From: an uncultured Candidatus Saccharibacteria bacterium
GTDB taxonomy: Bacteria; Patescibacteriota; Minisyncoccia; Phycocordibacterales; UBA12088
Assembly: GCA_964411375.1 (NCBI GenBank)
Contig: CAYPKR010000001.1
Span: 358,629 to 422,628 of the forward strand
Direction of reading: 5' to 3'
DNA length: 64,000 bases
Part shown: piece after piece, positions 1,671-40,189 of the stretch
Position numbering within the stretch: position 1 is the stretch's first letter
How the letters are laid out: every line of letters begins with the position of its first letter
Program-made: the position numbers and the translations under genes
Notes under the pieces: model-generated
The model's input: only the letters and a program-made list of their open reading frames with translations
The model's database searches: none
What the model was told of the DNA's origin: nothing

Positions 1671-2009
1671 ATGAATTCCAAGGTCAGATTGTTTCGAAAC
1701 AATATTATTGCGGTAGCAGTCGGTATTGGTACATTTCTTGCCCCACATATTGTCCGCGCCGATCCTCCGACACTTCGCGACATCATCGTCAAAATAACAT
1801 CGCTCATTCAGCTCGCGTCTATTTTGCTCGGTGGGCTCTTGGTTGTGGCGTTTGTGTGGGGTATCGCACGGTTTATCCTGAATGTGGGCGGATCTGACAA
1901 GCGCGCTGCCGATAAGCAATACTTATTTTGGGTAGTTGTCGCGATGTTCGTAATGTTTGGTGTCGTTGGACTCGTCACAATACTTCAAAACACGCTCCTC
2001 AATGGCTAA
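1671..2009 (+). CDS. small two-TM pilin-like protein, array member 2
   Basis: 112 aa with the same signal + TM-loop-TM layout. The 6-nt gap to the upstream gene suggests an operon. Confidence 0.5.
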   Translation: MNSKVRLFRNNIIAVAVGIGTFLAPHIVRADPPTLRDIIVKITSLIQLASILLGGLLVVAFVWGIARFILNVGGSDKRAADKQYLFWVVVAMFVMFGVVGLVTILQNTLLNG

Positions 2010-2412
2010 ACAATTCATACAAAAAGGCGGACTGGCTCTGATGTTGTGCATCAGCATTGTTCTTCCGAGTGTTGCGTACGGCGAAGCCACCATCGATGAT
2101 TTGTTGGTACATTCAATTGCTTTCGTAAACGGATATCTTATTTATGTGGCCTTTGCCGCGACATTCCTATTTTTCCTATACGGCATCGCACGGTACATTC
2201 TTGCTTCTGGAGATGATGCAAAAGTGGCGGGACGCCAGCTTATGATCTGGGGTTCGGTCGCTATGTTTATTGTTTCCTCAATTTGGGGATTGGTTGCGAT
2301 TATAAACCGCACGCTCGGACTTCCTGGCCAGCCAGAGGGAACGATTCGTGCGACCTGTGTTCATTTATTTGGTGAAGCACCTACCGAAAGCAATTGTGCC
2401 GATACCAACTAG
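2002..2412 (+). CDS. small two-TM pilin-like protein, array member 3
   Basis: The start is taken at the internal ATG 2002 (MAKQFIQKGG...), giving an 8-nt overlap with the upstream stop (aATGGCTAAa). It has two TM helices flanking a DDAKVAGRQLMIWGS loop. Confidence 0.45.
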   Translation: MAKQFIQKGGLALMLCISIVLPSVAYGEATIDDLLVHSIAFVNGYLIYVAFAATFLFFLYGIARYILASGDDAKVAGRQLMIWGSVAMFIVSSIWGLVAIINRTLGLPGQPEGTIRATCVHLFGEAPTESNCADTN

Positions 2413-2473
2413 CATTTGTGGAGAAGTCACTCGACAAATAATCGATGTACCGTAGCATGTAAGTATTATTTTC

Positions 2474-2842
2474 ATGAATCGACACGCTGTATCTCGAATC
2501 ACTGCAACCGTCGCATCGGTTTTTGTTTTCGCTACTCCGCTTATTACGCTTGCGCAAGGAAGCGATCTTTTTACTGTTGGTCAAGATAGCGCTACCGCAC
2601 TTCTTAATATTCTACAAACGCTGACGCAGGTTGCATTTCTCGCAATAATGGTCGCGTTCTTCTGGGGTCTCGCTAAATACATTTGGGGCGGCGCCGAGGA
2701 TAAAGAGCGCGGAAAAAATCTAATGGTGTGGGGAACGCTTGCCATTTTCGTCGCTGCGTCTATCTGGGGAATTGTGACGGTACTCAAAATCACTTTTGGT
2801 GTTGGTAATGAACAAACAGGCTTTGTACCGCTAGTCATTTAA
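2474..2842 (+). CDS. small two-TM pilin-like protein, array member 4
   Basis: 122 aa with a signal peptide and the conserved motif FFWGLAKYIWGGAEDKERGKNLMVWG...ASIWGIV shared with members 5 and 6. Confidence 0.55.
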   Translation: MNRHAVSRITATVASVFVFATPLITLAQGSDLFTVGQDSATALLNILQTLTQVAFLAIMVAFFWGLAKYIWGGAEDKERGKNLMVWGTLAIFVAASIWGIVTVLKITFGVGNEQTGFVPLVI

Positions 2843-2857
2843 CAGTAATAAATCAGT

Positions 2858-3223
2858 ATGACGACATCTAAAATACGATCAGCACTTATGCACGGCGTTG
2901 TCGCCGTAGGTTCTCTTGTTCCAGTTTTGGTTTCCGCACAAGCAAATGCACTCGACACAGTCGACCAGAGTACGATAACCCTTCTCACGATCGTCTCGCG
3001 CCTCTCCCTTATCGCATTCATGGCGATTCTCCTCTTTTTCTTCTGGGCAATAGCTAAATACATTTGGGGTGGCGCTGAGGATAAGGAAGAAACGAAGAAT
3101 CTCCTTATCTGGGCGGTGGTCGCACTGTTTGTCGCCGCTTCAATCTGGGGAATCGTTCAAGTGCTTAAAACAACCTTCGGGGTTGGCGACGAGACATCAG
3201 TCAATATTCCCCGCGCATTCTAA
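2858..3223 (+). CDS. small two-TM pilin-like protein, array member 5
   Basis: 121 aa carrying the motif FFWAIAKYIWGGAEDKEETKNLLIWA...ASIWGIV; a close paralog of 2474 and 3319. Confidence 0.55.
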   Translation: MTTSKIRSALMHGVVAVGSLVPVLVSAQANALDTVDQSTITLLTIVSRLSLIAFMAILLFFFWAIAKYIWGGAEDKEETKNLLIWAVVALFVAASIWGIVQVLKTTFGVGDETSVNIPRAF

Positions 3224-3318
3224 GCTTTATTTGTCCACACCGGATCCTTGCATGAAGGGCGGGAGGCGGTATTCTAAAGGGGAATTAGTCGCAATAGTTT
3301 ATTAATATTTTTGTATTC

Positions 3319-3672
3319 ATGAAAAAACTTATTTCGCTTTCCGCTCTCGGTATGTTTGCTCCGGCGCTTGCATTTGCACAGCTCACTGGTGCAGGTAATA
3401 CCATCACCGCAGCAGTAACAACGTTGGGAAATGTTGTTAACGCCCTTATTCCAATCGCGTTTGCTGCCGCACTCCTCTTCTTCTTCTGGGGTCTCGCACA
3501 GTACATCTGGGGTGGTGCCGAAGAGAAGGAAAAGGGTCGCAACCTCATGATCTGGGGCGTTGTTGCGCTCTTCATCATGGCGTCGATCTGGGGAATCGTT
3601 GGTGTGCTTCGAACAACGTTTGGTATTACTGCAAACCCATCGACTGCACAGGTTCCAGGCGTAACTCCGTAA
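3319..3672 (+). CDS. small two-TM pilin-like protein, array member 6
   Basis: 117 aa carrying the motif FFFWGLAQYIWGGAEEKEKGRNLMIWG...ASIWGIV. Confidence 0.55.
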   Translation: MKKLISLSALGMFAPALAFAQLTGAGNTITAAVTTLGNVVNALIPIAFAAALLFFFWGLAQYIWGGAEEKEKGRNLMIWGVVALFIMASIWGIVGVLRTTFGITANPSTAQVPGVTP

Positions 3673-3691
3673 TCTCTCCATTTTCCCTCAT

Positions 3692-3970
3692 ATGGGATTT
3701 CCTACTTCCGTATCGGAATTTATGAATCGGGTTGATGCCGCAATCATCAACCCGATTTTGGCATTACTCTTTACTGCAGGCATGCTGTACTTCCTCTGGG
3801 GCGGATTCCAGTTTATTGTCGGCGCAGCAGAACCATCAAAGCGCATTGAAGGGAAGCAGCACATGCTATGGGGTGTTATTGGTATGTTCGTAATGTTTTC
3901 GGTCTACGTCATTCTTCGAGTCGGACTTACGACATTTGACATAACGCCAGCACCAGGGTTGCCGCTCTAA
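3692..3970 (+). CDS. small two-TM pilin-like protein, array member 7 (no signal peptide)
   Basis: 92 aa with a diverged version of the same core (LWGGFQFIVGAAEPSKRIEGKQHMLWG). Confidence 0.45.
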   Translation: MGFPTSVSEFMNRVDAAIINPILALLFTAGMLYFLWGGFQFIVGAAEPSKRIEGKQHMLWGVIGMFVMFSVYVILRVGLTTFDITPAPGLPL

Positions 3971-8105: not shown

Positions 8106-8150
8106 CAAGCGTTAAGAAATCCTGATCTACGTCAGGATTTTAGCTTGTCC
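8103..8150. terminator. nested perfect hairpin overlapping the tRNA-Lys 3' end
   Basis: Outer stem GGACAAGC/GCTTGTCC and inner stem AAATCCTGA-TCTACG-TCAGGATTT. The left arm begins inside the tRNA acceptor 3' strand. Confidence 0.55.
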
Positions 8151-8260
8151 GAGCCGGAGCAATGTTGCGTAGCAACTGCGAGGCGGGATCGCGAGTGCTT
8201 AGCATTTTGTGCGTAGCTACAAAATACTTAGCAACTCGTGATGACTTTTTAAAAGACGGC

Positions 8261-8384
8261 AATCGGTCACCGATAATTTTGCGTAGCAAAATTTCGTCGA
8301 CCCCAGCTCGCCGTCGCTTCGCGACATGGCTGCGCTTTTCGATTCCCAACACACTCAAAGCAGCTTGAGTGCTCTCTCGGCACT
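8261..8384 (+). ncRNA. structured non-coding element, copy A (44-nt conserved module, GCGTAGC-loop hairpin, GTCGC hairpin, inverted pseudo-copy of the tRNA-Leu 3' half)
   Basis: 8261-8304 is identical to 9116-9159. Hairpin AATTTT-GCGTAGC-AAAATT; hairpin GTCGC-TTC-GCGAC. TTTTCGATTCCCAAC is a T-loop copy, CACTCAA-AGCAGC-TTGAGTG is an inserted hairpin, and CTCTCGGCAC is a plus-orientation copy of the tRNA-Leu 3' acceptor. Confidence 0.5.
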
Positions 8385-8409
8385 CTTTACTCAACTTCGT
8401 TTCGTTCGG

Positions 8410-8496
8410 TGCCGAGAGTGGGAATCGAACCCACACGAGCGTTTATAGCCCTCGGGATTTTAAGTCCCGTATGTCTACCAATTCCATCATCTCGGC
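8410..8496 (-). tRNA. tRNA-Leu (anticodon TAA), long variable arm
   Basis: The reverse complement folds with acceptor GCCGAGA/TCTCGGC, anticodon stem CGGGA/TCCCG with loop CTTAAAA, a long variable arm, T-arm GTGGG-TTCGATT-CCCAC and discriminator A. Confidence 0.8.
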
Positions 8497-8503
8497 GTAC
8501 TCG

Positions 8504-9097
8504 CTATTGTAAATTAGTACCCCAATATTGTCTCGATGCAAGTATTGCAATAAATCCGCACCCTATGAATGAATAGATAGGATAGGCTAAGTTATAGGCT
8601 GCGTACGAGGAAACTGCAAGAATCCCGCAGAGTGCGGAAAGGGTGATGAGTGCCCAAGGTAGCAACGCCTCCGACTCGGGCATTCGGTATGTTTTAGTGA
8701 TCGTTGGGATGGTAAAAAATGCATCGCCGATGATTGAAATATAAATTGCAAGTACTGGGTCGTTGGTATACACCCATGCGGCTATTGCCATGATTCCTAT
8801 TAGGAACGCAAGTGTATCAATCCAGTGGTACGCCGTAAGATATTTTTTGTAATAAACCGAGACGCCGAGTGTTAGTAGGCAATTAAAGGTGAATATGGTT
8901 GGAATGACTATCGACCAATCTGCGCCTTTTGAAAACTGCGCAAGAGCCGGAATTGCAGAAAGGAGTGACCAACCTATTTGTGAATAAATATGTGGACGAG
9001 TAGTGCCGTATATAACGCTCCGCAAATAGGGAACCGCCGAAGAAAGCGCAATGCACGTTGCAGCTATTCCGAGTAGTGCGTGGGAATTGATAGGCAT
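8504..9097 (-). CDS. polytopic membrane protein (hypothetical, about 6 TM)
   Basis: 197 aa and hydrophobic throughout. It sits between tRNA-Leu and the second copy of the 44-nt module. Confidence 0.5.
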   Translation of the reverse strand: MPINSHALLGIAATCIALSSAVPYLRSVIYGTTRPHIYSQIGWSLLSAIPALAQFSKGADWSIVIPTIFTFNCLLTLGVSVYYKKYLTAYHWIDTLAFLIGIMAIAAWVYTNDPVLAIYISIIGDAFFTIPTITKTYRMPESEALLPWALITLSALCGILAVSSYAAYNLAYPIYSFIGCGFIAILASRQYWGTNLQ

Positions 9098-9115
9098 TGG
9101 TTTCTTAATTTTAGG

Positions 9116-9320
9116 AATCGGTCACCGATAATTTTGCGTAGCAAAATTTCGTCGACCCCGCCTTACTCATCCATAAGCCAGTCCACGCAGGATCGGTCCT
9201 TACAGGACCAGTATACCGTGCGGATTTTTTCTTCGCCTTCGGCTCGAAAAAAGTCTCGCACGGTTTTCGATTCCCGCACGAACGCTCCCCCGGAGCGTTC
9301 TCGGGCCCCAACTTCGTTGG
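9116..9320 (+). ncRNA. structured non-coding element, copy B (44-nt module + variable hairpins + T-loop copy of tRNA-Cys + CCC-triloop hairpin)
   Basis: 9116-9159 is identical to 8261-8304. There is a GGTCC-TTACA-GGACC hairpin; TTTTCGATTCCCGC is a plus-orientation copy of the tRNA-Cys T-loop/T-stem; and there is a GAACGCTCC-CCC-GGAGCGTTC hairpin. Confidence 0.5.
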
Positions 9321-9392
9321 AGTCCACGGCGGGAATCGAACCCGCGTATAAGGGTTTTGCAGACCCATGCCTTACCACTTGGCCACGTGGAC
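9321..9392 (-). tRNA. tRNA-Cys (anticodon GCA)
   Basis: The reverse complement folds with acceptor GTCCACG/CGTGGAC, anticodon stem TGGGT/ACCCT (a 27-43 U-U pair) with loop CTGCAAA, T-arm GCGGG-TTCGATT-CCCGC and discriminator T. Confidence 0.75.
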
Positions 9393-9397
9393 AATTT

Positions 9398-9715
9398 TTA
9401 TTGCAGTGCCTCGGCGCTGGTATCCGTCATCGGAATATCCGGCGCAATGACAAAATCGATGAAGGGAAGTCCGCGGAGCGCGCTCTTCTCCTTTAAATAT
9501 TCACGAAATTCACTTCGCTTCCGCTTCAAAAAATCAAGCGCTGCAGCTTCGTGATCTTTTGGATACACCGAGCAAAAAATCTTTGCCTGCTTTAAATCTT
9601 CCGAAAGATACACGCCGGTTACGGTTATGAGCGACTGACGATTGGATTCTATATTCACAAATGTCGCAGCAAGATGCTGAAGCTCTTCCCTCGTGCGTGC
9701 AGTACTGTCCTCCAT
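9398..9715 (-). CDS. rbfA: ribosome-binding factor A
   Basis: 105 aa carrying the RbfA core ITVTGVYLSEDLKQAKIFCSVY. It lies immediately downstream of infB, the conserved infB-rbfA order. Confidence 0.75.
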   Translation of the reverse strand: MEDSTARTREELQHLAATFVNIESNRQSLITVTGVYLSEDLKQAKIFCSVYPKDHEAAALDFLKRKRSEFREYLKEKSALRGLPFIDFVIAPDIPMTDTSAEALQ

Positions 9716-9724
9716 AAAACTATC

Positions 9725-11227
9725 TTATTTAACGACAATAATAAAGCACTGCAGAGTGTCCCCCGGAGCGATCAAGGTTTTTGATTCGACTTCCGCACCA
9801 AACTCTCCCGATTCAACCGATTTTGTTGGTGCTTTCTGTTGTTGGAGTCCAATGATTACTCCGTCTCCTATAATCTCGCCACGACGATCAATTGAGAATC
9901 GATCTTTGATTTTTAACACACCGTTTTCTGCTTTGCCGCCGATGATTTGCTTGTCCTTGTTGGTGCTAAATACTTTAAGTACTTTTGCGCTGCCAGTTTC
10001 ATCCCTTCCTTCTTTTTTCGGTCGGCGGGTTTCGAGTTTTTCTTCGAGCCATTCGGCAAGGCGATAGATGATATCGAAAAGACCGATGTCGATACCGTTT
10101 CGTCGCGCGGACTCTTCTGCCGCACTATCCACTTTCACATTGAACCCAACGATGAGTCCTTGTTTGCCAAAGCCGATCGATTGCGCATCATTTTCGCTGA
10201 TTGTCCCAATGCCTTCCGAAATGATCTTACAGCGCACACCTTCCATGTGAATTTTTCCGATCTCGTGTTTGATCGCGTCGATCGCACCTGCTGCGTCCGC
10301 CTTGATTACAACCGGCACGATAAATGTATCCTGATCTTCCGCTTCTGGAGCGACCGTGCCTTTTCCACTTCGACGGAATTCATCCGCAATGGCTTCCGCT
10401 TCTTTTTTGCTCCCCACTGTTTGGAAATGAGCCCCCGTTTCGGGAACTTCAGAAAAACCAATTATTTGAATGGGGCTTGAAAACATTGCTTCGGTGATAC
10501 TCCGTCCCGCAAAATCTTGCATAATGCGAGTCGGTGCAAACGCGCTTCCTGCGACAACAAATTGTCCGCTCCGGAGCGTACCGTCTTTTAGGATGAGTGT
10601 TGCGGAAATTCCTTTTTTCGGATCGCGTGATGCTTCAATGATGAAACCGCTCGCGTCCGCGTCCGGGTTTCCTTTGAGTTCACCAAGTTCGGAAAGTAAG
10701 AGAAGAACATCGAGCAGATCTTCAACGCCGTCGCCGGTTTTTGATGAGAGGGGAACATACGGCACATCACCACCAAGTCCTTCGAGGTAAATTTCATTTT
10801 CAATCAACGAGCTTTTTGCCCGCTCTATATTTGCTCCACTCTTGTCGATTTTGGTGAGCGCGACTACAAACGGCGTTCCTTGCGAGCGGATCGCATTCAT
10901 TGCTTCTATTGTCTGCGCTTTTACACCGTCTTCTGCGGATACGACCAAAATGGCAATATCGGCGACTTCAAGCCCTTGCGAGCGCATTCTCGAGAATGCT
11001 TCGTGTCCGGGCGTATCGAGAAAAGTGATTTTCTTTTTTTCTCCCTCCTTTGTTTCGTGGAGAACTTCATACGCCGAAAGCCGCTGAGTGATGCCGCCTG
11101 CTTCCGAGTCAACGACCCGCGTTTTTCGGATGTAGTCCAAAAGGGTTGATTTGCCATGATCAATATGCCCAAGGATTGCGACAACCGGGGGACGAGTATT
11201 CTTTTGTTCAGGAGTAGAGGTGGACAT
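9725..11227 (-). CDS. infB: translation initiation factor IF-2 (short form starting at the G domain)
   Basis: 500 aa with G1 AILGHIDHGKSTLLD, a DTPGHEAF switch, NKID and the IF-2 C-terminal domains (GFNVKVD..., IIYRLAEWL). Confidence 0.85.
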   Translation of the reverse strand: MSTSTPEQKNTRPPVVAILGHIDHGKSTLLDYIRKTRVVDSEAGGITQRLSAYEVLHETKEGEKKKITFLDTPGHEAFSRMRSQGLEVADIAILVVSAEDGVKAQTIEAMNAIRSQGTPFVVALTKIDKSGANIERAKSSLIENEIYLEGLGGDVPYVPLSSKTGDGVEDLLDVLLLLSELGELKGNPDADASGFIIEASRDPKKGISATLILKDGTLRSGQFVVAGSAFAPTRIMQDFAGRSITEAMFSSPIQIIGFSEVPETGAHFQTVGSKKEAEAIADEFRRSGKGTVAPEAEDQDTFIVPVVIKADAAGAIDAIKHEIGKIHMEGVRCKIISEGIGTISENDAQSIGFGKQGLIVGFNVKVDSAAEESARRNGIDIGLFDIIYRLAEWLEEKLETRRPKKEGRDETGSAKVLKVFSTNKDKQIIGGKAENGVLKIKDRFSIDRRGEIIGDGVIIGLQQQKAPTKSVESGEFGAEVESKTLIAPGDTLQCFIIVVK

Positions 11228-14564: not shown

Positions 14565-17270
14565 TTGTCTAAATCTACTCACATGACTCCATTCAATAAT
14601 TTCACAACCAAGGCGAAGGAAGCGGTACGAAAAGCCCACGAACTTGCTATTGAACGCGGACAAAATCACGTCAATCCGCTCCATCTTCTAACCGCACTCA
14701 TCCTGCAGGAAGAAAATACTGTCTTTTCTATACTCGAGCGACTCGACGTCGATACGGTACTTTTGACTGACACACTCCTTGAAGCACTTGAAGCGCCGGA
14801 AGGATCATCAGTGCTCTCACCTTCATATCAGCTCTACCTCACGCCAGAACTTGCACACGTACTTGAAAATTCTGCACGCATTGCGTCAGCACTTGGCGAT
14901 CAGTTTGTTTCTACCGAACATCTTTTCATCGCTATTCTTGATAATCCGGGCCCAGCGCGCGAAGTAATCGCTCGTTTCCGATTTGATCGGAATTCTGTCA
15001 TCAGAATTATTCAGGAACTCAAGGCAAACAATGTTACTGATGTCGCACAACCAAAGAAATTTAAAGCCCTCGCAAAATTTACGCGTAATCTAACGGCGCT
15101 TGCCGCTGACAACAAACTCGATCCAGTCATCGGTCGTGATGGTGAAATCACCCGCGTCATTCAGATCCTTTCTCGTCGAACCAAAAATAATCCGATTTTG
15201 ATCGGTGAGGCGGGTGTTGGAAAAACCGCAATCGCCGAAGGTCTCGCAAATCGTATCGCATCAGGTGACGCACCAGAATCGCTTCGCGGAAAGGAACTTG
15301 TTGCGCTCGACTTAGGGCTTCTCATTGCGGGTACGAAATATCGCGGCGAATTTGAAGAGCGTCTCAAAAACATTATGAAAGAAGTTGAGAAGGCGGATGG
15401 GAAAGTCATCCTCTTTATCGACGAGCTTCATACGATCGTTGGTGCGGGTGCAGCAGATGGCGCGATGGATGCGTCAAACATGCTGAAGCCAGCGCTTGCG
15501 CGCGGAGAACTTCGGGTTATCGGTGCAACGACGCTTGCTGAATATCAAAAGCACATCGAAAAAGATGCAGCGCTCACGCGTCGCTTCCAGCCGGTCATTG
15601 TAAATGAACCGTCGATCGAAGATGCGGTCGCGATTCTTCGTGGACTTCGTGAAAAGTACGAAGTCTTCCATGGCGTTCGAATTACCGATGAAGCAATCGT
15701 TGCGGCAGTTAATCTTTCTTCCCGCTATATCACTGATCGATTCTTGCCGGACAAGGCGATCGATTTGATTGACGAATCTGCGTCAGCACTCCGTATCTCG
15801 CTTGAAAATAAACCGGCGGCTCTCGAAGATGCACACCGCAAAATAATGCGCCTCGAAGTCGAGAAGGAAGCGCTTTCAAAAGACTTGGAAATTCACGAAG
15901 GTCGTGATACCAAGGCGCGCATCAAACAAATTGAAAAAGAAATCGCCGATCTTCGCGAGAAGACTGCCGACCTCGAACTTCGATGGAGCAACGAAAAGGA
16001 AGTGCTCTCTGATATCAAGGCGCTCAAAAAACAACTTGAAACGCTTCGAAATGAAGCAGAAAACGCGGAAGCAGTTGCTGATCTTTCTCGTGCTGCCGAA
16101 GTACGCTATGGAAAAATTCCGGCACTTGAGCGCGATCTCGATCAGAAGGTCAAAAAATTAAAGCGATTCCAGCAGACGCGCCGTGTGCTGAAAGAAGAGA
16201 TTATGGAAGAGGATATTGCAGCAGTTGTTGCGCGCTGGACGGGTGTTCCGGTTTCTCGAATGCTCGAAGAAGAAGCACAGAAGCTTTCTCGTATGGAAGA
16301 TTCGCTGAAAGATCGAATCGTGGGACAAGATGATGCAATTACGAAGGTTGCCGCTGCGGTGAAGCGATCTCGTGCAGGCATTGCTGATCCAAATCGTCCA
16401 ATCGGTTCGTTCCTCTTCCTCGGTCCAACGGGAGTTGGTAAAACGGAACTCTCAAAGGCGCTCGCTGAATTCATGTTTGATGACGAGAAATCGCTCATTC
16501 GAGTCGACATGTCCGAATACATGGAACGCCACGCAGTGTCCAAGCTCATCGGTGCGCCTCCAGGATATGTTGGATTTGAAGAAGGCGGATCTTTGACCGA
16601 ACTCGTTCGTCATCGTCCGTACTCGGTTTTGCTCTTCGACGAAATTGAAAAAGCGCATCCCGAAGTCTTCAACATTCTGCTTCAAGTTCTCGACAGCGGT
16701 CATTTGACCGATTCAAAGGGACGCAAAGTGAACTTCAAAAATACAATCATCATTTTGACTTCGAACATTGGTTCGCAATACATCGATCGCATGACGCAGA
16801 TCGGATTCTCGAAAGATAATGGTAACGAGGCGGTGCAGTACGAAATGACAAAGGACAAGGTGATGGATTCGCTCAAAGAATTCTTCCGCCCTGAATTCCT
16901 CAATCGTCTTGATGAAATCATCATCTTCAATATGCTCTCCGAGGACGCGATTAAGAATATTGTCGCGATGCAGGTGAAGTTGGTCGCTGATCGCTTGCTC
17001 CAAAAGGGAATCACGCTCACGCTCACTGATGCCGTCTATGCGCATCTCGCAAAAACTGGATACGATCCGCACTACGGTGCCCGTCCACTGAAGCGCTTGA
17101 TTCAAAACAAGATTTTGACCCCGGTCGCCTCGATGATGATCTCCGAAGGACTGCTTGGGGGTGGCTCGGTTGTCGTCGACATGAAGGGGACGGAATTCGC
17201 ATTCGATGTGAAGAAAAAGAAGGGAACCGTTCGTCGGGCTTCAAAGAAAGAGGAGAAGGTGTTGGTATAG
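14565..17270 (+). CDS. clpB: ATP-dependent chaperone ClpB
   Basis: 901 aa with Clp-N repeats, D1 Walker [16 protein letters not shown], a long coiled-coil M-domain, D2 Walker [16 protein letters not shown], Walker [11 protein letters not shown] and sensor GARPLKR. Confidence 0.85.
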
Positions 17271-18066: not shown

Positions 18067-18191
18067 AATACCCTCAATATATTCCTCTCTTCTTTGTATG
18101 TCCAAAATATTTTGAGAGGGAGTTTCGACCCCTACAGGGTCAGTCCAGGTTGTATGATCTTTTCTTCCTTCGGTCGAAAAGCTCGACAACC

Positions 18192-18242
18192 TTTTCGAAT
18201 CCCTCACGAAAGTTCCCCCGGAGCTTTCTCTGTGCCACCAAA
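18192..18242 (+). ncRNA. inverted pseudo-copy of the tRNA-Tyr 3' half with a CCC-triloop hairpin insert
   Basis: TTCGAATCCCTC is a plus-orientation copy of the tRNA-Tyr T-loop/T-stem, followed by the GAAAGTTCC-CCC-GGAGCTTTC hairpin and GTGCCACCA, which resembles the acceptor 3'-CCA. Confidence 0.45.
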
Positions 18243-18272
18243 CAAAAAATCCCTTTCAAGGGATTTTTTGTT
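18243..18272. repeat. CAAACAAAAAATCCC-TTTCAA-GGGATTTTTTGTTTG perfect palindrome abutting the tRNA-Tyr 3' CCA
   Basis: 15-bp perfect stem ending 1 nt before the tRNA-Tyr 3' end. Confidence 0.6.
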
Positions 18273-18924: not shown

Positions 18925-19075
18925 ACTGATGTAGTTCAAATTAATTACAACAAATTTATCATAGCATCCTTCAAGGAAGCGGCGCAGGGTTCCGAGGCCG
19001 AGGTGGGGAAATCTTTCCCCGCGTTCTGTGTATAAAAACAGCCATATCGTCGCATTTTATCGTTATACTAATTTC

Positions 19076-20053
19076 ATGAAGTATCTTGCATGGCTCCTTG
19101 CCTTGCTCTCGTTTTCGATTATCCCGACGGCCGTGTTTGCCGCTGGTGGACTTGTACCGTGCGATGGACCGGAGTGTGATATCTGTTCGTTTGTTGCGCT
19201 CGGACAAAAAATCCTCAATTTCCTCGTCTATGCTTCGGTCCTTATTGCGACCATCATGTTCACGTATGCAGGGATTGAAATGCTCATTCATTCCGACAAT
19301 TCCGGAGCGATCTCGCAAGCGCGACATACGTTTATGAATGTACTGATTGGACTCGTCGCAATTCTCGCCGCGTGGCTCATCATCGATACAGTTATGCGCG
19401 TTCTCTTTACCTACAACAATGGTTTTGAAGGAACGGCAGGATACGGAAAGCCTTGGGAGGATATTTTGTGCGCGTATCAATCGGAACCGCCTCCACCCAC
19501 TACCGGAGGCGGTGGAACGACTGCTACCGCAGGAGGGGGTAGCGCGACCGCGGGAGGTGGAGGTGGATCATGCACAGTACAAACGGATGGTGCGTGTAGT
19601 GTGAGTGCGCTGACACCAGTCTTCGATACCGTAGCAAGCCAAGCATCGCAAATCTGCAATGCAGAAAGCGGCGGAAATCCGAACAGTGAAAGTGCTGTGG
19701 ATCGCATTCTCGCTGGCGGACAGGCATTTTCAGTCGGGCTATTTCAAATAAACATGACGCAACATGATCTCACTGCTCCGGCATGCAAGGCGCTAAACGG
19801 CGGTAATCCAATGGATTGCTCCCAATTAGATACTTCTGTAATAGGTCCACCGCTCACTCCACCTGCATTTACCGGCTCAAATCGAAATGCCCGCATTACT
19901 AATACTGCTTTGTACAATGCATGTAGTGCAGCGCTCAAAAATCCTGCGTGCGCAATACAGACTGCCAAACAAATTTACATTGCTGGCGGAGGTCCTTCGC
20001 GCCCAAATTCATGGGCACAGTGGTCGACTGCTGCAACCTGTCATCTTCCGTAA
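19076..20053 (+). CDS. fusion protein: N-terminal VirB2/TrbC-like two-TM pilin domain, Gly/Thr linker, C-terminal lytic-transglycosylase/lysozyme-like domain
   Basis: The start is taken at MKYLAWLL. It has a signal peptide, then PCDGPECDICS, two TM helices (the same layout as array gene 1276) and a GGGTTATAGGG linker. The C-terminal CNAESGGNPNSES...GLFQIN matches the E-S...GL(F/M)QI signature of SLT/Rpf-type transglycosylases. Confidence 0.5.
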   Translation: MKYLAWLLALLSFSIIPTAVFAAGGLVPCDGPECDICSFVALGQKILNFLVYASVLIATIMFTYAGIEMLIHSDNSGAISQARHTFMNVLIGLVAILAAWLIIDTVMRVLFTYNNGFEGTAGYGKPWEDILCAYQSEPPPPTTGGGGTTATAGGGSATAGGGGGSCTVQTDGACSVSALTPVFDTVASQASQICNAESGGNPNSESAVDRILAGGQAFSVGLFQINMTQHDLTAPACKALNGGNPMDCSQLDTSVIGPPLTPPAFTGSNRNARITNTALYNACSAALKNPACAIQTAKQIYIAGGGPSRPNSWAQWSTAATCHLP

Positions 20054-20084
20054 TTTTTGCTCGTAGCATAGTATTAGTACAACC

Positions 20085-20666
20085 ATGAAAATATTCCTCA
20101 AATTTTTTCTCGGCATAGGGGTGATCGGGCTCATTGGAGTTTCCATTCTCTATTTCTTTTTTACGAAACAGCAACCAATCGAGGAGCCAACAACTGGAGA
20201 GGCAACGATAAACGGATTTCCAACAAGTGGCGGTGGAACAATTATCGGAGGAGGATCGGCGGGGAGCACAACAACCACTGGAGAGATTCCTCCCGGCAAG
20301 CGCGCTATTCAGACCCGTGGATCTGACAAGATTGTGGTAAATGATTTCCTCGCAAGTTCAACACCGCATCAGGACGAATATATCGGCGAATATTATTTAC
20401 TGAATGAATCGACGACGACACCGCCATTCCAAATTATTTACACGGCGAAAGATCAGTTTTTCCAGATTTCGATTGAAAAAGCTCCGCTCGGAATTGTCCG
20501 AAAAGATGCAGAAACATTTCTTCTTACCTCGCTCGGTATAAACCAACAGACGGCGTGCTTACTGAAACATTCAGTCGGAGTTCCTAATTGGCTCGATACG
20601 CATTATTCGGGAAAGAATGTGGAATTTAGTTTTTGCCCAGGTACTGTATTGCTTCCAGAAATTTAA
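20085..20666 (+). CDS. membrane-anchored hypothetical protein with Gly/Thr-rich linker
   Basis: 193 aa with an N-terminal TM helix, a GGGTIIGGGSAGSTTTTG linker and a beta-rich C-terminus. Confidence 0.4.
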   Translation: MKIFLKFFLGIGVIGLIGVSILYFFFTKQQPIEEPTTGEATINGFPTSGGGTIIGGGSAGSTTTTGEIPPGKRAIQTRGSDKIVVNDFLASSTPHQDEYIGEYYLLNESTTTPPFQIIYTAKDQFFQISIEKAPLGIVRKDAETFLLTSLGINQQTACLLKHSVGVPNWLDTHYSGKNVEFSFCPGTVLLPEI

Positions 20667-20678
20667 TTTATCCTCGAT

Positions 20679-21617
20679 ATGAAATCAGTAATCCGATTTT
20701 TTACAGTGACGGTAGTTGCATTTATGCCGTTTGTCGTTTTGTATGCCGCGGGTGGACTCGTACCGTGCGACGGACCAGAGTGTGATCTATGTTCACTTGT
20801 CGCGCTCGCTCAGAAAATAATGAATTTCCTGATTTTCATTGCGGTCATTATTGCGACCATCATGTTTGTCTACGCGGGATTCACGATGCTCGTGAATGCA
20901 GACAATGCAGGAAAGCGAAGTGAGGGGCGGAAAATTTTTGTGAATGTACTGATTGGACTCGTCGCAATTCTCGCCGCGTGGCTCATCATCGATACGGTCA
21001 TGAAAGTTCTCTTCGTCAATTCTGAACTCAACAACGATCGGGTCGGGCGCCCGTGGCAGGATATTTTGTGCGAGTTTCAATCCGTAAAGCCGCCACCCGA
21101 TGGGGGTGGAACTGCAACTGCAGGAACAGCTACCGCAGGCACCGCGACTGCTGGCGGTACCGCAACAGCAGGAGGCGGAACCGCAGGTGGTAGTGGTAGC
21201 GGAGCTCCATTGCATCAGGATGCGGCGTTCGCTCTTCTTAATGCAAGTAACATCGCAATACATAGCTCAGGTGATTGTACCGATCCGAATATTTCCACCT
21301 GTACATCTCTTGAAGGAATGCGGCAGGGAACTGTTGCCGGCATCATCAATCTATCGAATAGCGTCTGTGGCTCGGATGGGGGTTGTGTCGTAGTGACCGG
21401 AGGTACGGAAGTAGGGCATGAACCAGGAGTCTGTTCTCATTCAAATGGATGCAAGGCAGACGTTGCATTTAATCCTGCGGTCGATGCATATATCACGACC
21501 TTTGTTCGAATAGGCGACCGGACTGACGGTGCGGCGCAGTATCAGGATAGGTGTGGAAATATCTATGCCCGAGAGTCAGACCATTGGGACATCTCTTTCC
21601 CGAACGCATGCTCCTAA
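20679..21617 (+). CDS. fusion protein: N-terminal pilin-like two-TM domain (paralog of 19076) + (GTATA)n linker + Cys-rich C-terminal domain of unknown function
   Basis: The N-terminal 130 aa is about 75% identical to 19076, including a 55-nt identical DNA tract (20941-20995 = 19335-19389). The C-terminal domain is unrelated and has 12 Cys. Confidence 0.5.
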   Translation: MKSVIRFFTVTVVAFMPFVVLYAAGGLVPCDGPECDLCSLVALAQKIMNFLIFIAVIIATIMFVYAGFTMLVNADNAGKRSEGRKIFVNVLIGLVAILAAWLIIDTVMKVLFVNSELNNDRVGRPWQDILCEFQSVKPPPDGGGTATAGTATAGTATAGGTATAGGGTAGGSGSGAPLHQDAAFALLNASNIAIHSSGDCTDPNISTCTSLEGMRQGTVAGIINLSNSVCGSDGGCVVVTGGTEVGHEPGVCSHSNGCKADVAFNPAVDAYITTFVRIGDRTDGAAQYQDRCGNIYARESDHWDISFPNACS

Positions 21618-22245: not shown

Positions 22246-22365
22246 TTATCGTCGCTTCTTACTTGCTCGCTTTGTCAACATTTCTCTCTTCGCCGCAAGT
22301 CGCTTTTTTGTTTTCCGTGAGCGAGATTTTCTAGCTCGCGCCGGTCCTGTGTCTCTTTTTGCCAT
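22246..22365 (-). CDS. possible very basic 39-aa protein (ribosomal-protein-like composition)
   Basis: MAKRDTGPARARKSRSRKTKKRLAAKREMLTKRASKKRR; 17 of 39 residues are K/R. The ATG is at 22365 and a terminator hairpin follows. Confidence 0.25.
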   Translation of the reverse strand: MAKRDTGPARARKSRSRKTKKRLAAKREMLTKRASKKRR

Positions 22366-22432
22366 ATGACTCTAGTATATCGTACCGAAAGGGTAAGAGG
22401 AAACATTTACATGTTGGCGGACTATGAGGAAC

Positions 22433-22560
22433 TCGGTCACGGATAATTGTTGCTACGCACAATTTCCGCGACCCGTGAAAAGGTGTCCGTACACCTTTTC
22501 ACCACCGTCGCTATGCGACATGGCTCCGTCTTTCGATTCTGAAGGAGGTCTGCGCAGGCA
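22433..22560 (+). ncRNA. structured non-coding element, copy C (diverged homolog of copies A/B, with T-loop copy of tRNA-Trp)
   Basis: CGGTCACGGATAATTGTTGCTACGCACAATTTCCGCGACCCG aligns to the 44-nt module; the loop GCGTAGC becomes GCTACGC while the stem is kept. It has an inserted 12-bp hairpin, a GTCGC-TAT-GCGAC hairpin conserved with copy A, TTTCGATTCTGAA (a tRNA-Trp T-loop copy) and a GTCTGCG-CAGG-CAGAC hairpin. Confidence 0.5.
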
Positions 22561-22569
22561 GACTTCTGT

Positions 22570-22617
22570 GGCCCGCAAATGTAAAATCCCTCAAAAGGGA
22601 TTTTACATTTGCGGGCC
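22570..22617. repeat. 21-bp perfect palindrome GGCCCGCAAATGTAAAATCCC-TCAAAA-GGGATTTTACATTTGCGGGCC overlapping the tRNA-Trp 3' end
   Basis: The right arm includes the tRNA-Trp acceptor 3' strand (GGGCCC). Confidence 0.6.
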
Positions 22618-22682
22618 CACTCAGAATCGAACTGAGAACGTCGGTTTTGGAGACCGAAATTTTACCGTTAAACTATAGGCCC
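22612..22682 (-). tRNA. tRNA-Trp (anticodon CCA)
   Basis: The reverse complement folds with acceptor GGGCCTA/TGGGCCC (a U-G pair), anticodon stem TCGGT/ACCGA with loop CTCCAAA, T-arm CTCAG-TTCGATT-CTGAG and discriminator G. Confidence 0.75.
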
Positions 22683-25197: not shown

Positions 25198-25246
25198 TTG
25201 TTTTGCGACCCCGAGCGCTAACGTGCTCGGGTTTTTTATATTGTTG

Positions 25247-37335: not shown

Positions 37336-37719
37336 ATGCCCCTGGTATTTATCTATTACACCTATTGGCACTACACCCATGCGCCACGGGATATTTTCCA
37401 GATTTGGAAAAATTTCCTATGGTTTTTTCTCAATTTTTTCTCCATCCCTCTTCTCCTTATGTCGCTCTTTGCGCCATTTGAGCGACTCGATGAAAAACCG
37501 CGAAAAGGATTTGATCTCGAAGCGATCGGGGAAGCTTTGATTGTGAATATCCTGATGCGCATCGTTGGATTTGCGGTCAGGGCAGGAACAATCGCGATCG
37601 GACTCGTATTTCTGGCAGTCACTTTTTTTGGTGGAATACTTTTTCTTCTCGCATGGCTTTTGATGCCACTTCTGATTCTCTCCCTTATCGTTGCCGGAAT
37701 GTTTCTTATAGTTGTCTAA
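37336..37719 (+). CDS. small polytopic membrane protein, translationally coupled to the downstream AAA+ gene
   Basis: 127 aa with about 4 TM helices. It overlaps the next start by 8 nt. Confidence 0.45.
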   Translation: MPLVFIYYTYWHYTHAPRDIFQIWKNFLWFFLNFFSIPLLLMSLFAPFERLDEKPRKGFDLEAIGEALIVNILMRIVGFAVRAGTIAIGLVFLAVTFFGGILFLLAWLLMPLLILSLIVAGMFLIVV

Positions 37720-40189
37720 TATGATCTTCTCCGCATTCCAAGACACGGTCGAGAAAGTGTATGCGCCCGCGCTGCTTCTTGAACGAACACTGCCGCATCG
37801 TCTGCGCCATCGAATTGAACTCATACTCGACGGCATTCTCGCGCTTACATTTGCGGGGATCCTTGTTTCTTTTTTGTCTGCAAATGTTGCAAGTAATCTC
37901 GGCACCTATCCTGCGTTTCATTTCTTCACACTCTATGCGGATAAACTGTACGGCATTTTTTTGATCGCGGTCGCGCTTCGCGCAATCCTCTCCGGTCTTG
38001 AATCATTTTTTCGCTCGTATTATTTTCGAGGACTTGAAACAATCCTGAAAGAAAATACCCTCCATGAAATGCCGACCACTCTCGAAGTCGCGTCGTTCAT
38101 TTCCGGAATAAAAGGTGATGATTTGGTTGGCGGGTTTTTCATGTCGGAATATGGCGCTGAGATTGCACTCCGCTCCGGTCTTTCGCTCGAAAAAGTGCAA
38201 GCATTTCTTTCTGCTCGCGAACATTCACTTCCGCCGGCGACTCTAAATCTCACCGAACCAGTTTCGATGAAAAGCTATGCTTCCGACATCGTGCATTCAG
38301 ATGAGGGATTTGCACAATTTCTTCGCGAGTCAGGAATCACCGAAGATATTTTTATTGAAACGGCAGATTGGATAGAGCGTGCTCATTCAGAGGCGAAATA
38401 TCACCGAAGATGGTGGTCGCGCGACAATCTGGGACGCATTCCATCAATCGGCAAAAACTGGTCGTATGGTCAGGTACAAGTTCTTGAAAAATACGCGCAT
38501 CCGCTTGCGAGCGACCCGGTGTACCGTGCAACTGAAAATCAGTCGTGGGGAGATGAGGAGTCCGTCAAAAAATTGGAAACCATACTTTCGCGCGATCGCG
38601 AAGCAAATGCGCTTATGGTTGGAGAAGCGGGAGTTGGTGTTCTTGAAATTATCGCGCGACTTGGACACATGGTTGAAAGCGGTCAGGCGCTCCCACAACT
38701 TGAGCGCAAACGAATATATCTCTTGCAGGGAGATGCAATCATCGCAGGCACTCGCGAAAAAGGCGCATTCGAAGCCGCATTTCATTCGGCGATGAAAGAA
38801 GCGATTCGAGTCGGGAACATCATTTTGGTTATTGAAAATTTTCCACTCTTTGTGGAAAGCGCTTCGTCAATCGGATCCAATCCAGTCGAGCTTCTTGAAG
38901 ACTATCTTCGCTCGAATAAAATCCAATTTGTCGCGACTGCGGATCAAGGCGATTATCATCGCGTACTCGAACAAAATACGCTTTTCATGGAACTTTTCGA
39001 GCGAGTCCAGATTGGAGAAATGGGCGGCGAAACCTTGATTCGACTGCTTCAAAATCTTGCGCTCGAACTCGAACATCACACCGGAATTCTCATAACCTAT
39101 CCGGCGCTCAAGGAAATTGCCGAGGGTGCTGATCGTTACATCCCAGATGGCGTGATGCCAGACAAAGCGATCGACCTTCTCTCCGAAGTCATTCCCGCAG
39201 TTGAAGAAAAGAAAAAAGATACGGTTGAGAAAAGTGACGTGCTCGATCTCATCTCTGGCAAAACTGGCGTGCCGCTTGGAGATGTATCGACTGCAGAAAA
39301 AGACAAGCTCTTGAATCTCGAATCGATTCTTCATAGTCGGGTGATCGGACAGGATGCGGCGATTTCGGGCGTTGCAAATGCGATGCGACGAGCACGTGCG
39401 GGAATTCAAAATCCAAATCGTCCAATCGGCTCATTCCTTTTCCTTGGACCAACCGGAGTTGGAAAAACTGAGACGACCAAAGCGCTTGCGGCAGTGTTCT
39501 TTAATAACGAGGACGCGATGATCCGTCTCGACATGTCGGAATACAAAGGGGCGGATGCGCTGGAGCGGCTCATCGGCTCGTTTGAAACGGGGAAGCCAGG
39601 CACACTCGTTTCTAAACTTCGTGAAAAACCATATGCTGTTCTCCTCCTCGACGAGTTTGAAAAAGCAACTGCAGAAGCGCAGGATCTGTTCCTCCAAGTT
39701 CTTGACGAAGGTAAGTTTAAAGACGCGAGCGGCAAAGAAGTGAATGCGCGAAATACGATAATCATCGCGACATCGAACGCCGCGAGCGACAAAATTTGGG
39801 AATATTTCAAATCGAATACGCCGATTGACGGACACGAGCGCGAAATCATCGACACGATTATCGAGCGGAAAATTTACAAGCCGGAACTTTTAAACCGCTT
39901 CGACGGCGTCATCGTCTTCCATCCTTTGAGCGAGGCGGATATCGAAAAAGTCGCGCGCCTCATGCTTGAGCGTCTTGCGAAGCGCCTCAAAGAACGCGGC
40001 GTGATTCTTACGATTAACGATCCGCTGATCAAATACCTAACCAAGATCGGATACGATCCAGAGTTCGGTGCTCGTCCGATGAATCGCGCGATTCAAGAAA
40101 AAATAGAACAGCTCATCGCTGACCGAATGCTTCAAGGAACAATCAAATCTGGCTCGCACGTAGAACTTACTGATGCGGATTTGAAATAA
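37712..40189 (+). CDS. membrane-anchored Clp/Hsp100-family AAA+ protein with a degenerate (ATPase-dead) D1 and intact D2
   Basis: Two N-terminal TM helices are followed by one Clp-N-like repeat. The D1 Walker A is GEAGVGVLEIIARLG (K and T lost) and Walker B is ILVIENFP (DE lost). D2 is intact: [28 protein letters not shown] and GARPMNR. There is no long M-domain. Confidence 0.65.
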   Translation: MSNMIFSAFQDTVEKVYAPALLLERTLPHRLRHRIELILDGILALTFAGILVSFLSANVASNLGTYPAFHFFTLYADKLYGIFLIAVALRAILSGLESFFRSYYFRGLETILKENTLHEMPTTLEVASFISGIKGDDLVGGFFMSEYGAEIALRSGLSLEKVQAFLSAREHSLPPATLNLTEPVSMKSYASDIVHSDEGFAQFLRESGITEDIFIETADWIERAHSEAKYHRRWWSRDNLGRIPSIGKNWSYGQVQVLEKYAHPLASDPVYRATENQSWGDEESVKKLETILSRDREANALMVGEAGVGVLEIIARLGHMVESGQALPQLERKRIYLLQGDAIIAGTREKGAFEAAFHSAMKEAIRVGNIILVIENFPLFVESASSIGSNPVELLEDYLRSNKIQFVATADQGDYHRVLEQNTLFMELFERVQIGEMGGETLIRLLQNLALELEHHTGILITYPALKEIAEGADRYIPDGVMPDKAIDLLSEVIPAVEEKKKDTVEKSDVLDLISGKTGVPLGDVSTAEKDKLLNLESILHSRVIGQDAAISGVANAMRRARAGIQNPNRPIGSFLFLGPTGVGKTETTKALAAVFFNNEDAMIRLDMSEYKGADALERLIGSFETGKPGTLVSKLREKPYAVLLLDEFEKATAEAQDLFLQVLDEGKFKDASGKEVNARNTIIIATSNAASDKIWEYFKSNTPIDGHEREIIDTIIERKIYKPELLNRFDGVIVFHPLSEADIEKVARLMLERLAKRLKERGVILTINDPLIKYLTKIGYDPEFGARPMNRAIQEKIEQLIADRMLQGTIKSGSHVELTDADLK

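Follow-up and report, generated by a model that had tools for sequence, protein, structure and literature searches.

Integrative islands in tRNA and tmRNA genes are among the closest described systems to the element considered here. It is established that such islands regenerate the target gene (tDNA) and displace a fragment of the old one, that the crossover may lie in the T-loop, that tmRNA genes serve as targets and that tandem arrays are formed (PMC4383910). The present analysis concerns a stretch of 64,000 nt (contig CAYPKR010000001.1 of assembly GCA_964411375.1, positions 358,629–422,628), referred to below as the window, from an uncultured Candidatus Saccharibacteria bacterium. In particular, it concerns a short element, copy C, located directly 3' of the minus-strand tRNA-Trp gene (22611–22682). 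According to the original prediction, copy C (22433–22560) was the third, diverged copy of a tRNA-trailer element represented in the window by two further copies, A and B. The element does adjoin the 3' end of tRNA-Trp, but it proved to be an insertion into the T-loop that carries a new 3' half of the tRNA and has left the old half behind. Units of this kind are insertions at T55|C56 that regenerate the tRNA and displace its former 3' half.

An exact-pattern scan of species-representative genomes gave 13 matches. Eight of them were true copies, all from metagenome-assembled genomes (MAGs) of Saccharibacteria, Kaiserbacteria and Minisyncoccia; the other five (L002, L006, L008, L011 and L013) were located in unrelated coding DNA and were rejected as chance matches. 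A scan of metagenome contigs added 11 further loci. All copies found lie directly next to a tRNA gene, a tmRNA gene or a displaced fragment that derives from a tRNA. The units are non-coding, with a length of approximately 170–250 bp, and on the tRNA-sense strand their parts follow in the order tRNA, spacer (often a terminator-like palindrome), X1, one purine, module and X2. X1 is the reverse complement of the tRNA 3' half and ends in ...GGGAWTCGAA. The type-1 module consists of the P2 5' strand GNC, GGA, the variable hairpin H2, GA, the P2 3' strand GN'C, GGGG and the hairpin H1, the latter having the consensus GUCGCGGAAAUUUUGC-NNN-GCAAAAUU(A)UCCGUGAC and ending in GUGAC. X2 comes directly after GUGAC and is a direct copy of the tRNA from the T-loop C56 to the 3' end with a few additional bases. 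A second module family (type 2) takes the same position in the inner units of window copy B and of L018, in window copy D, and at tRNA-Trp and tRNA-Tyr of L030.

The insertion point lies in the T-loop between T55 and C56, in tRNA genes as well as in two tmRNA genes (L001 and L019). In every informative copy the repeat starts with C56 of the T-loop, and an exact direct repeat of 14–21 nt from C56 was found at seven loci (L003, L004, L009, L014, L016, L018 and L023). The exact inverted match between the tRNA and its trailer is 9–18 nt long in every element-bearing gene and 4–6 nt long where no element was seen. The junction letters at both ends vary with the local T-loop (ATTCG, AATCG, ACTCG, ACTTG and AATTG). 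The motif CGGTCACSGATAATT, which the three copies have in common, is real and far above chance: it occurs at 8264, 9119 and 22434 and at one site with two mismatches in the window, with 0.29 matches expected by chance and four reached in none of 100 shuffles. However, its leading TCG, which becomes TTG for Asp and Gly, is a displaced T-loop remnant derived from the tRNA and not from the element, because the junction letters track the local T-loop.

L004, L018, L024 and window copy B contain units in tandem or nested in one another, every one accompanied by a displaced tRNA fragment of its own. Near-identical modules occur at different tRNAs, as in L003 (Ser) and L023 (Tyr), which differ in the triloop alone, and the L017 copy is a recombinant, since its X2 derives from a different tRNA. 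In L007, L016, L017 and L023, the tRNA 3' half, terminator and X1 form one long palindrome, and in L007 an intrinsic terminator separates the tRNA from the module. X1 is a DNA-level copy, because the trailer is copied and the added CCA is not; an origin from mature tRNA, as at the primer site of a retro-element, was rejected on the same grounds.

More evidence of insertion was obtained from relatives reached via IF-2 and MiaA homologs, in which the tRNA-Trp site exists in different states; an exact-protein search with MiaA had matched the same organism only. It is empty in L029 (MiaA 80% identical), holds an intact type-1 unit in L032 (81%) and a type-2 module in L030 (71%), and in the window it holds a decayed type-1 unit. 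Filled and empty sites were compared by anchored pairwise alignment. The 23 nt that follow GUGAC in the window (22435 down to 22413) and the sequence beyond are collinear with L029, where tRNA-Trp from C56 and its trailer lead, after approximately 28 nt, to a conserved basic 43-aa open reading frame (ORF). The score of this 23-nt segment against L029 was reached in 38 of 5000 shuffles and exceeds that against the window's own present tRNA-Trp 3' half. The L032 unit has a normal P2 (GCC/GGC) and has in common with copy C the H1 variant UUGUGC-GUA-GCA. L030 also carries type 2 at tRNA-Tyr and a type-1 variant at tRNA-Leu(CAA), a tRNA that is element-free in the window. In L027 (IF-2 72%), the tRNA-Cys and tRNA-Leu(UAA) genes are just 52 nt apart (3670–3847), without element B and ORF197; approximately 820 bp, including ORF197, are thus extra in the window.

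The sequence of tRNA-Trp itself also differs among these relatives. The T-arm in the window reads CTCAG/TTCGATT/CTGAG, as against CGAGG/TTCGAGT/CCTCG in L029 and L032, a difference of three stem pairs and one loop base (window 22611–22682; L029 2815–2888; L032 2788–2859). The displaced fragment X2 of copy C keeps the T-arm type of the relatives. Since the working T-arm is unlike that of the relatives and X2 is of their type, the working 3' half of tRNA-Trp arrived with the element. From these sequence comparisons, the elements appear to rewrite tRNA T-arms.

The sequence of copy C is as the original prediction described it, but the element runs from 22413 to 22629 on the minus strand. A covariance model built without copy C matched it at 22426–22542 (minus strand) with 41.8 bits (E = 1.5e-11), which bears out its status as a diverged relative of A and B; over a stretch of 35 nt it shares 86% identity with copy A (family D20). 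The first part on the minus strand is tRNA-Trp(CCA) (22611–22682; ARAGORN; 63.3 bits with the Rfam tRNA model), in which, according to the insertion model, the portion from C56 (22629) to the 3' end would be supplied by the element. It is followed by the terminator-like spacer palindrome T, GGCCCGCAAATGTAAAATCCC-TCAAAA-GGGATTTTACATTTGCGGGCC (22570–22617, minus strand; repeat family D10), whose arms extend into the tRNA acceptor end and whose 15-bp stem is present in both folds. The consensus terminator scanner, which misses A/T-extended palindromes, did not flag it. Hairpin H0, with the stem GTCTGC/GCAGAC (22543–22569, minus strand), was recognised by sequence comparison and in the centroid fold; it is inserted into the inverted tRNA half, and window copies A, B and D possess corresponding hairpins. 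The X1 core, TCAGAATCGAA(A) on the minus strand (22531–22542), is the reverse complement of the present tRNA-Trp T-loop and 3' T-stem, with an exact inverted match of 11 nt.

The module of copy C begins with the P2 5' strand and internal loop, GAC-GGA (22525–22530, minus strand), as placed by the covariance model alignment. Next comes an H2 of the copy-A type, GCC AU GUCGC AUA GCGAC GG (22505–22523, minus strand), supported by the fold and by 86% identity to 8311–8345 (D20). It is followed by the 12-bp hairpin GUGAAAAGGUGU-ACGGA-CACCUUUUCAC (22475–22502, minus strand) and by the GGG junction with the long hairpin H1, GUCGCGGAAAUUGUGC-GUA-GCAACAAUUAUCCGUGAC (22436–22474, minus strand), identified by the covariance model match and the fold, in which the invariant G.U pair and the bulged A are both present. 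The last part, X2, reads CGAGTTCCTCATAGTCCGCCAAC on the minus strand (22413–22435) and, according to the collinear alignment with the empty L029 site, is the displaced and decayed 3' half of the ancestral tRNA-Trp; the native trailer and the promoter of the small ORF follow. The hairpins named in the original prediction all exist: H1 (22436–22472), GTCGC-TAT-GCGAC (22505–22523) and the 12-bp hairpin are predicted whichever strand is folded (z = −7.9 and −7.5).

What had been thought peculiar to copy C turned out differently. The loop said to be inverted in copy C is the hypervariable triloop of H1, which varies more than any other part of the family and occurs as at least eight different triplets; copy C shows the type met most often, GUA on the tRNA-sense strand, and it is copies A and B that are unusual, with GTA on the opposite strand. 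Nor is the 12-bp hairpin an insertion: it is the homologue of the normal H2 in the intact tRNA-Trp element of L032, AGUAAAAGGUU-CGGGG-AAUCUUUUACU (L032 2907–2935). The intact L032 copy has GCC-GGA...GA-GGC, and copy C lacks the partner strand GA-GUC; because GA-GNC is lost, P2 cannot form. With the P2 3' strand gone and two H2-like hairpins present, copy C is a chimeric, decaying copy, and not the variant shaped by selection on structure for which it had been taken.

The claim of a conserved secondary structure with compensatory changes held for the family as a whole. The model R1 was built from a 15-sequence alignment (A2) with a structure assigned by the author, and the alignment A4 comprised 23 sense-strand matches to R1 (E < 1e-7) from CPR (candidate phyla radiation) genomes and metagenomes. 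The type-1 fold is a three-way junction with a closing stem P1, a 3-bp P2 bearing the variable hairpin H2, and the long hairpin H1. In the 23 copies, 92.4% of the cells assigned to pairs were paired, as against 33–50% when the partners were slid by 1–3 columns, and 21 of 30 pairs had changed on both sides (3–7 for slid partners). The covariation score was 0.277 compared with approximately 0.04 for slid partners, and the observed values were reached in 0 of 500 shuffles. The middle pair of P2 occurs in three states (C-G, A-U and G-C); other P2 variants are the A-U first pair of copy A and ACU/AGU in L030. In L001 (tmRNA), L007 (Arg), L017b, L030 (Leu) and the window tRNA-Lys copy, H1 has a wholly different inner stem, and between copies A and C two H1 pairs have changed on both sides (C-G to G-C and U-A to G-C). 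The fourth pair of H1 is G.U in all 23 copies, and those copies that were inspected all retain a bulged A in H1 (C in L001). For type 2, alifold analysis of five sequences gave 13 of 23 pairs with double changes. It is the secondary structure that is conserved, rather than the sequence.

For P1 the covariation is trivial, as one and the same tRNA is the source of both X1 and X2. This stem has 15% mismatches, with nine G.U and nine A.C and no strand bias, which looks like decay from a common origin and not like selection for pairing. Outside P1, there are 28 G.U and two A.C on the tRNA-sense strand. The internal loop and junction read GGA/GA and GGGG on this strand; on the other strand they read UCC/UC and CCCC, with an A.C mismatch. 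GGA/GA could form tandem G.A pairs. Among 19 triloops of H1, 14 have the sequence GNA with a closing C-G pair on the sense strand. In single-stranded DNA, loops of the C(GNA)G type have unusual stability. Taken together, the G.U/A.C bias, the internal loop, the junction and the GNA triloops point to the tRNA-sense strand as the one that folds, although they are suggestive only and do not tell RNA from single-stranded DNA.

On balance, we lean towards regarding copy C as a decaying member of a non-autonomous family of T-loop insertion cassettes of CPR, whose fold acts on the tRNA-sense DNA strand. In such a cassette the unit would supply a replacement 3' half from C56 and so keep the tRNA intact, and the spacer after this half would often serve as a bidirectional terminator. 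The layout would be that of a circle, joined at GUGAC|C56, after its integration. The structure would work at the DNA level: on the tRNA-sense single strand, the replacement half may pair with X1 to give a duplex mimic of the target, at the base of which the module lies, and a recombinase encoded elsewhere may recognise H1 and H2 by features such as their bulged A and invariant G.T pair. Between orthologous tRNA genes, the units might also spread when DNA is taken up and recombines homologously, the tRNA body and X2 being the arms. A fold in DNA would give X1 a role and would account for the strand bias and for the conserved bulge and mismatch.

Several observations weigh against the cassette interpretation. 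No recombinase, transposase or integrase is encoded in the window, and no recombinase was seen beside an element, a minority of the fetched loci having been scanned for one. The unit was never seen in a circular or excised state, and neither scans of viral contigs with two patterns nor BLASTN searches of phage and plasmid records gave a module match. The interpretation does not account for the way in which one module family gains the correct 3' half for many different tRNAs. The covariation counts come from an alignment fitted to the model, and the strand bias rests largely on one inherited G.U position. The tRNA-Tyr element is retained in L030, a relative with 71% MiaA identity, so some copies are long-lived. 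In addition, the 5' T-stem strand of the window tRNA-Trp is also changed, which a simple crossover at C56 leaves unexplained; a recombination tract starting upstream of C56 fits this change.

Among the other explanations, the one that survives best is that the tRNA-sense strand yields a structured non-coding RNA, as a trailer or by read-through, in which the three-way junction is functional and X1 pairs with the tRNA 3' half or with X2 and affects tRNA processing, stability or sensing. We consider it unlikely. In its favour, the element always has the orientation of the tRNA, its covariation is strong, and the sense strand is favoured by the invariant G.U pair, by the purine-rich loop GGA/GA and by GGGG at the junction. 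It would also suit an RNA that sequence is kept across distant CPR lineages (Saccharibacteria, Kaiserbacteria and Minisyncoccia), that type-A copies have no terminator between the tRNA and the module and that X1 follows the changed T-arm of the window tRNA-Trp. However, close relatives differ in the presence of the element at the same tRNA; tandem arrays occur, as do truncated and chimeric copies (C without the P2 3' strand, and the type-1 unit of B reduced to H1 only); and in many copies a terminator or palindrome stands ahead of the module. The mismatches of P1, with as many A.C as G.U, are likewise poorly suited to an RNA stem, and there is no tie to a particular tRNA identity or downstream gene. 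According to the comparison with Rfam 15, which the original prediction had proposed as a check, no family overlaps copies A, B or C: at gathering and permissive E-values and on both strands, only tRNAs were found, and nothing believable covered these copies.

Other candidate roles were also rejected. Weak Rfam matches to tmRNA, miRNA and snoRNA models were noise. A leader of a downstream gene does not fit, as downstream genes differ among copies and copy A has none. A tRNA-like gene on the plus strand was excluded because the 5' T-stem partner is absent.

Less probable still is the view that the units are integration scars, that is, the remains of integrase-bearing islands or prophages in tRNA genes after loss of their cargo, with the module as a conserved attP arm. 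A regenerated tRNA with a displaced fragment does agree with the island rule (PMC4383910), and real islands do use the same tRNA ends, as in L020, where an island of 5 kb with a large serine recombinase is found at tRNA-Glu. That island, however, is inserted at a different point, the 3' end of the tRNA, and outside the unit. Across approximately 25 copies, X1 and the module are invariably a short distance apart, with cargo between them in none, and independent deletions would not repeatedly yield the same compact unit at many tRNAs. The lack of module matches in viral contigs, phage records and plasmid records also speaks against scars.

Weakest of all, and very improbable, is an origin without dedicated machinery, in which template switching at two palindromes (the terminator and the T-arm) made the units and homologous recombination after natural transformation spread them with the module as a passive passenger: the direct-inverted-direct order of tRNA halves is what two switches would give at the palindromic T-arm and terminator, the window holds DprA and pilin genes, the replaced 5' T-stem strand of tRNA-Trp fits a conversion tract from upstream of C56 and the L017 X2 is recombinant, but two module families, the constant GUGAC|C56, the same point in many tRNAs and tmRNA, and continued helix pairing through sequence change are left unexplained.

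The window contains five elements, not three; copies A, B and C are real, and a type-1 copy at tRNA-Lys and a type-2 copy at tRNA-Tyr are added to them. Five of the seven tRNA genes found by ARAGORN in the window bear an element, as do all three in the 21-kb L030 locus. Copy A, of type 1, follows tRNA-Leu(UAA) (8256–8407, minus strand; 89 bits with the covariance model) and is the most intact copy in the window, with P2 AGC/GCU and a minimum-energy fold that gives the three-way junction. The type-1 copy after tRNA-Lys(CUU) (8107–8252, plus strand; 57.7 bits for the match 8140–8252, and a pattern match) lies tail to tail with copy A; its X1 is truncated and its X2 is lost. GCGTAGC loops are seen in the two hairpins of this copy.

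Copy B is a nested array after tRNA-Cys (9111–9317, minus strand; 46.5 bits). According to the type-2 alignment, its inner part is a type-2 unit adjoining the tRNA (~9196–9317); outside it, a decayed 3' fragment of tRNA-Cys (9179–9195) is followed by a truncated type-1 unit (H1 at 9121–9156). Over 44 nt that take in H1 and its flanks, copy B has 100% identity with copy A (family D17), and an 8-nt direct tRNA match is present at +130. ORF197 (8504–9097, minus strand) is located together with element B between tRNA-Cys and tRNA-Leu(UAA); it has no Pfam match and is not on record as a called gene. Copy D, a type-2 element after tRNA-Tyr (~18110–18272, minus strand), has a 12-nt inverted tRNA match and an ortholog in L030 (14570–14737). 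The possibility that it was copy A without H1 was rejected, since it belongs to the second module type. Beside the element-free tRNA-Leu(CAA), the sense strand at 25198–25245 reads ...CTCGGGGTCGCAAAAC. H1 starts with a similar sequence, GGGG-UCGC, and the likeness may be due to chance or to an element that was lost and left a remnant.

The window is a piece of the housekeeping chromosome of a CPR/Patescibacteria bacterium. It encodes IF-2, two ClpB-like proteins, MiaA, ParB, RelA/SpoT, TopA, DprA, SerRS, Dus, TatC, and type IV and type IV secretion system (T4SS) pilin-like proteins; the best relatives of the window proteins carry the name Paceibacterota. The GC skew, considered for the direction of replication, is flat and uninformative. 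Downstream of copy C, a very basic 43-aa ORF (MAKRDTGPARARKSRSRKTKKRLAAKREMLTKRASKKRR; 22275–22406, minus strand) has no Pfam match. Its counterpart in L029 (~2916–3047, plus strand) has a GTG start, and the changes between the two are mostly synonymous or conservative; it is probably a real small gene. Other repeat regions of the window are at 1957–3681, 19028–21617, 14565–17270 with 37712–40189, and 63448–63912. Repeat families D1 and D4 correspond to small membrane ORFs that are tandem paralogs, D3 and D8 to T4SS-pilin-like paralogs, D2 and D15 to the two ClpB-like genes, and D6 to a coding repeat rich in serine and threonine at the end of the window.

Some of the other loci have features of their own. 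In L020 (the same as L010), a gene at 8425–10276 encodes a 605-aa large serine recombinase, and its 3' end overlaps the 3' end of tRNA-Glu(UUC). The island of approximately 5 kb to which it belongs lies exactly at the tRNA-Glu 3' end, with an older type-1 element on its other side, and is a separate, later insertion. L017 carries, at ~917–945 and 1225–1253, a short hairpin repeat, CATACTCTCACnTTCTTArGAACGTGAGA, unrelated to the tRNA elements. The Logan contigs of the relatives L026, L028 and L032 end inside or just after a tRNA or element, as would be expected if repeated tRNA halves and common modules break short-read assemblies.

A wider proposal, which we put forward tentatively and regard as possible but rather doubtful, is that these units form an undescribed CPR cassette system: ORF-less, foldable single-strand cassettes for the T-loop, each with a hairpin mimic of the target tRNA half, moved by an outside recombinase in an integron- or CTX-like manner and occupying most tRNA genes of some genomes. 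If this is true, tiny non-coding inserts have remodelled most of the tRNA genes of some CPR bacteria with ultra-small genomes, and changes in tRNA sequence, chromosomal rearrangements and breaks in MAG assemblies would have a hidden source in them. They would also provide a natural example of a structure-defined recombination target, with the T-loop, the most conserved sequence in biology, as a landing pad. The module family gives a covariance model that is ready for annotating such regions, which might otherwise be reported as novel tRNA-linked non-coding RNAs or tRNA pseudogene fragments. Descriptions of such elements were not found in the literature searched, the coverage of which was incomplete.

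As for the comparison with known systems, the units differ from an intrinsic terminator or plain trailer in having several helices that covary and are conserved across CPR classes; the terminator-like hairpin is just one part. [quoted passage not shown] Unlike these, they possess locus-specific inverted repeats derived from the target, have no short duplication and no GTAG foot, and are strictly linked to the T-loop, and no transposase was found. MITEs have constant terminal inverted repeats and a short duplication; here X1 and X2 differ by locus, and the duplication is a tRNA half of up to ~20 nt. REP/BIME are imperfect palindromes of about 35 nt that have a conserved GTAG/CTAC foot, are scattered over many intergenic regions and go with a RAYT transposase; here GTAG occurs only in some variable triloops, and the copies are linked to tRNA or tmRNA genes. 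A fixed insertion point (after GTT of the T-loop) and hairpins would fit IS200/IS605 elements, which have subterminal hairpins and no inverted ends and insert 3' of a fixed short target, but the target-derived inverted and direct repeats do not; TnpA (Y1) is not encoded in the window.

Integron attC sites and the attP of CTX phage act as folded single strands, and the recombination proposed for the units would resemble both. Like integron cassettes, the units are non-autonomous, insert serially at a fixed site and may lack ORFs; the site is conserved in structure and free in sequence, as the H1 inner stems demonstrate, with extrahelical or mismatched bases (the bulge and the G.U pair) and a strand bias. 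They differ in their target, the tRNA T-loop, and recombination of a single strand would be the proposed route. The RYYYAAC/GTTRRRY cores are also lacking: on the tRNA-sense strand, H1 begins with GUCGCGG and ends with CCGUGAC, P1 is tRNA-derived, and no AAC/GTT cores are visible. Neither an integron integrase (intI) nor attI is present in the window, the other loci having had no systematic scan. With the CTX-phage type (integrative mobile elements exploiting Xer, IMEX, which use the host Xer) the units have in common two inverted target-like copies, ~70–110 nt apart, that could fold into a duplex mimic of the target and that both stay at one end of the insert after integration. They differ in that the target is not dif, there is no phage genome and no Xer sites were recognised.

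The units also resemble tDNA islands of the tyrosine integrase, T-loop class (Islander, PMC4383910; Williams 2002 as cited there). In both cases the tDNA is split, its 3' part is restored and a direct repeat is displaced; tmRNA genes are also targeted, and tandem arrays occur at one tDNA. Islander looks for an intact tDNA with a co-oriented displaced 3' fragment, which is exact at the seven loci with direct repeats and decayed over 23 nt in copy C, and for a crossover in the anticodon loop, T-loop or T/acceptor junction, which here is the T-loop. It further looks for an integrase gene inside the insert, whereas these units of 170–250 bp carry neither an integrase nor any other gene. They have, besides, an obligatory inverted tRNA half and a folded module, one family of which serves many tRNAs. 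The unit is placed here among the tDNA-targeted integrative elements, with a cassette-like, structure-defined module.

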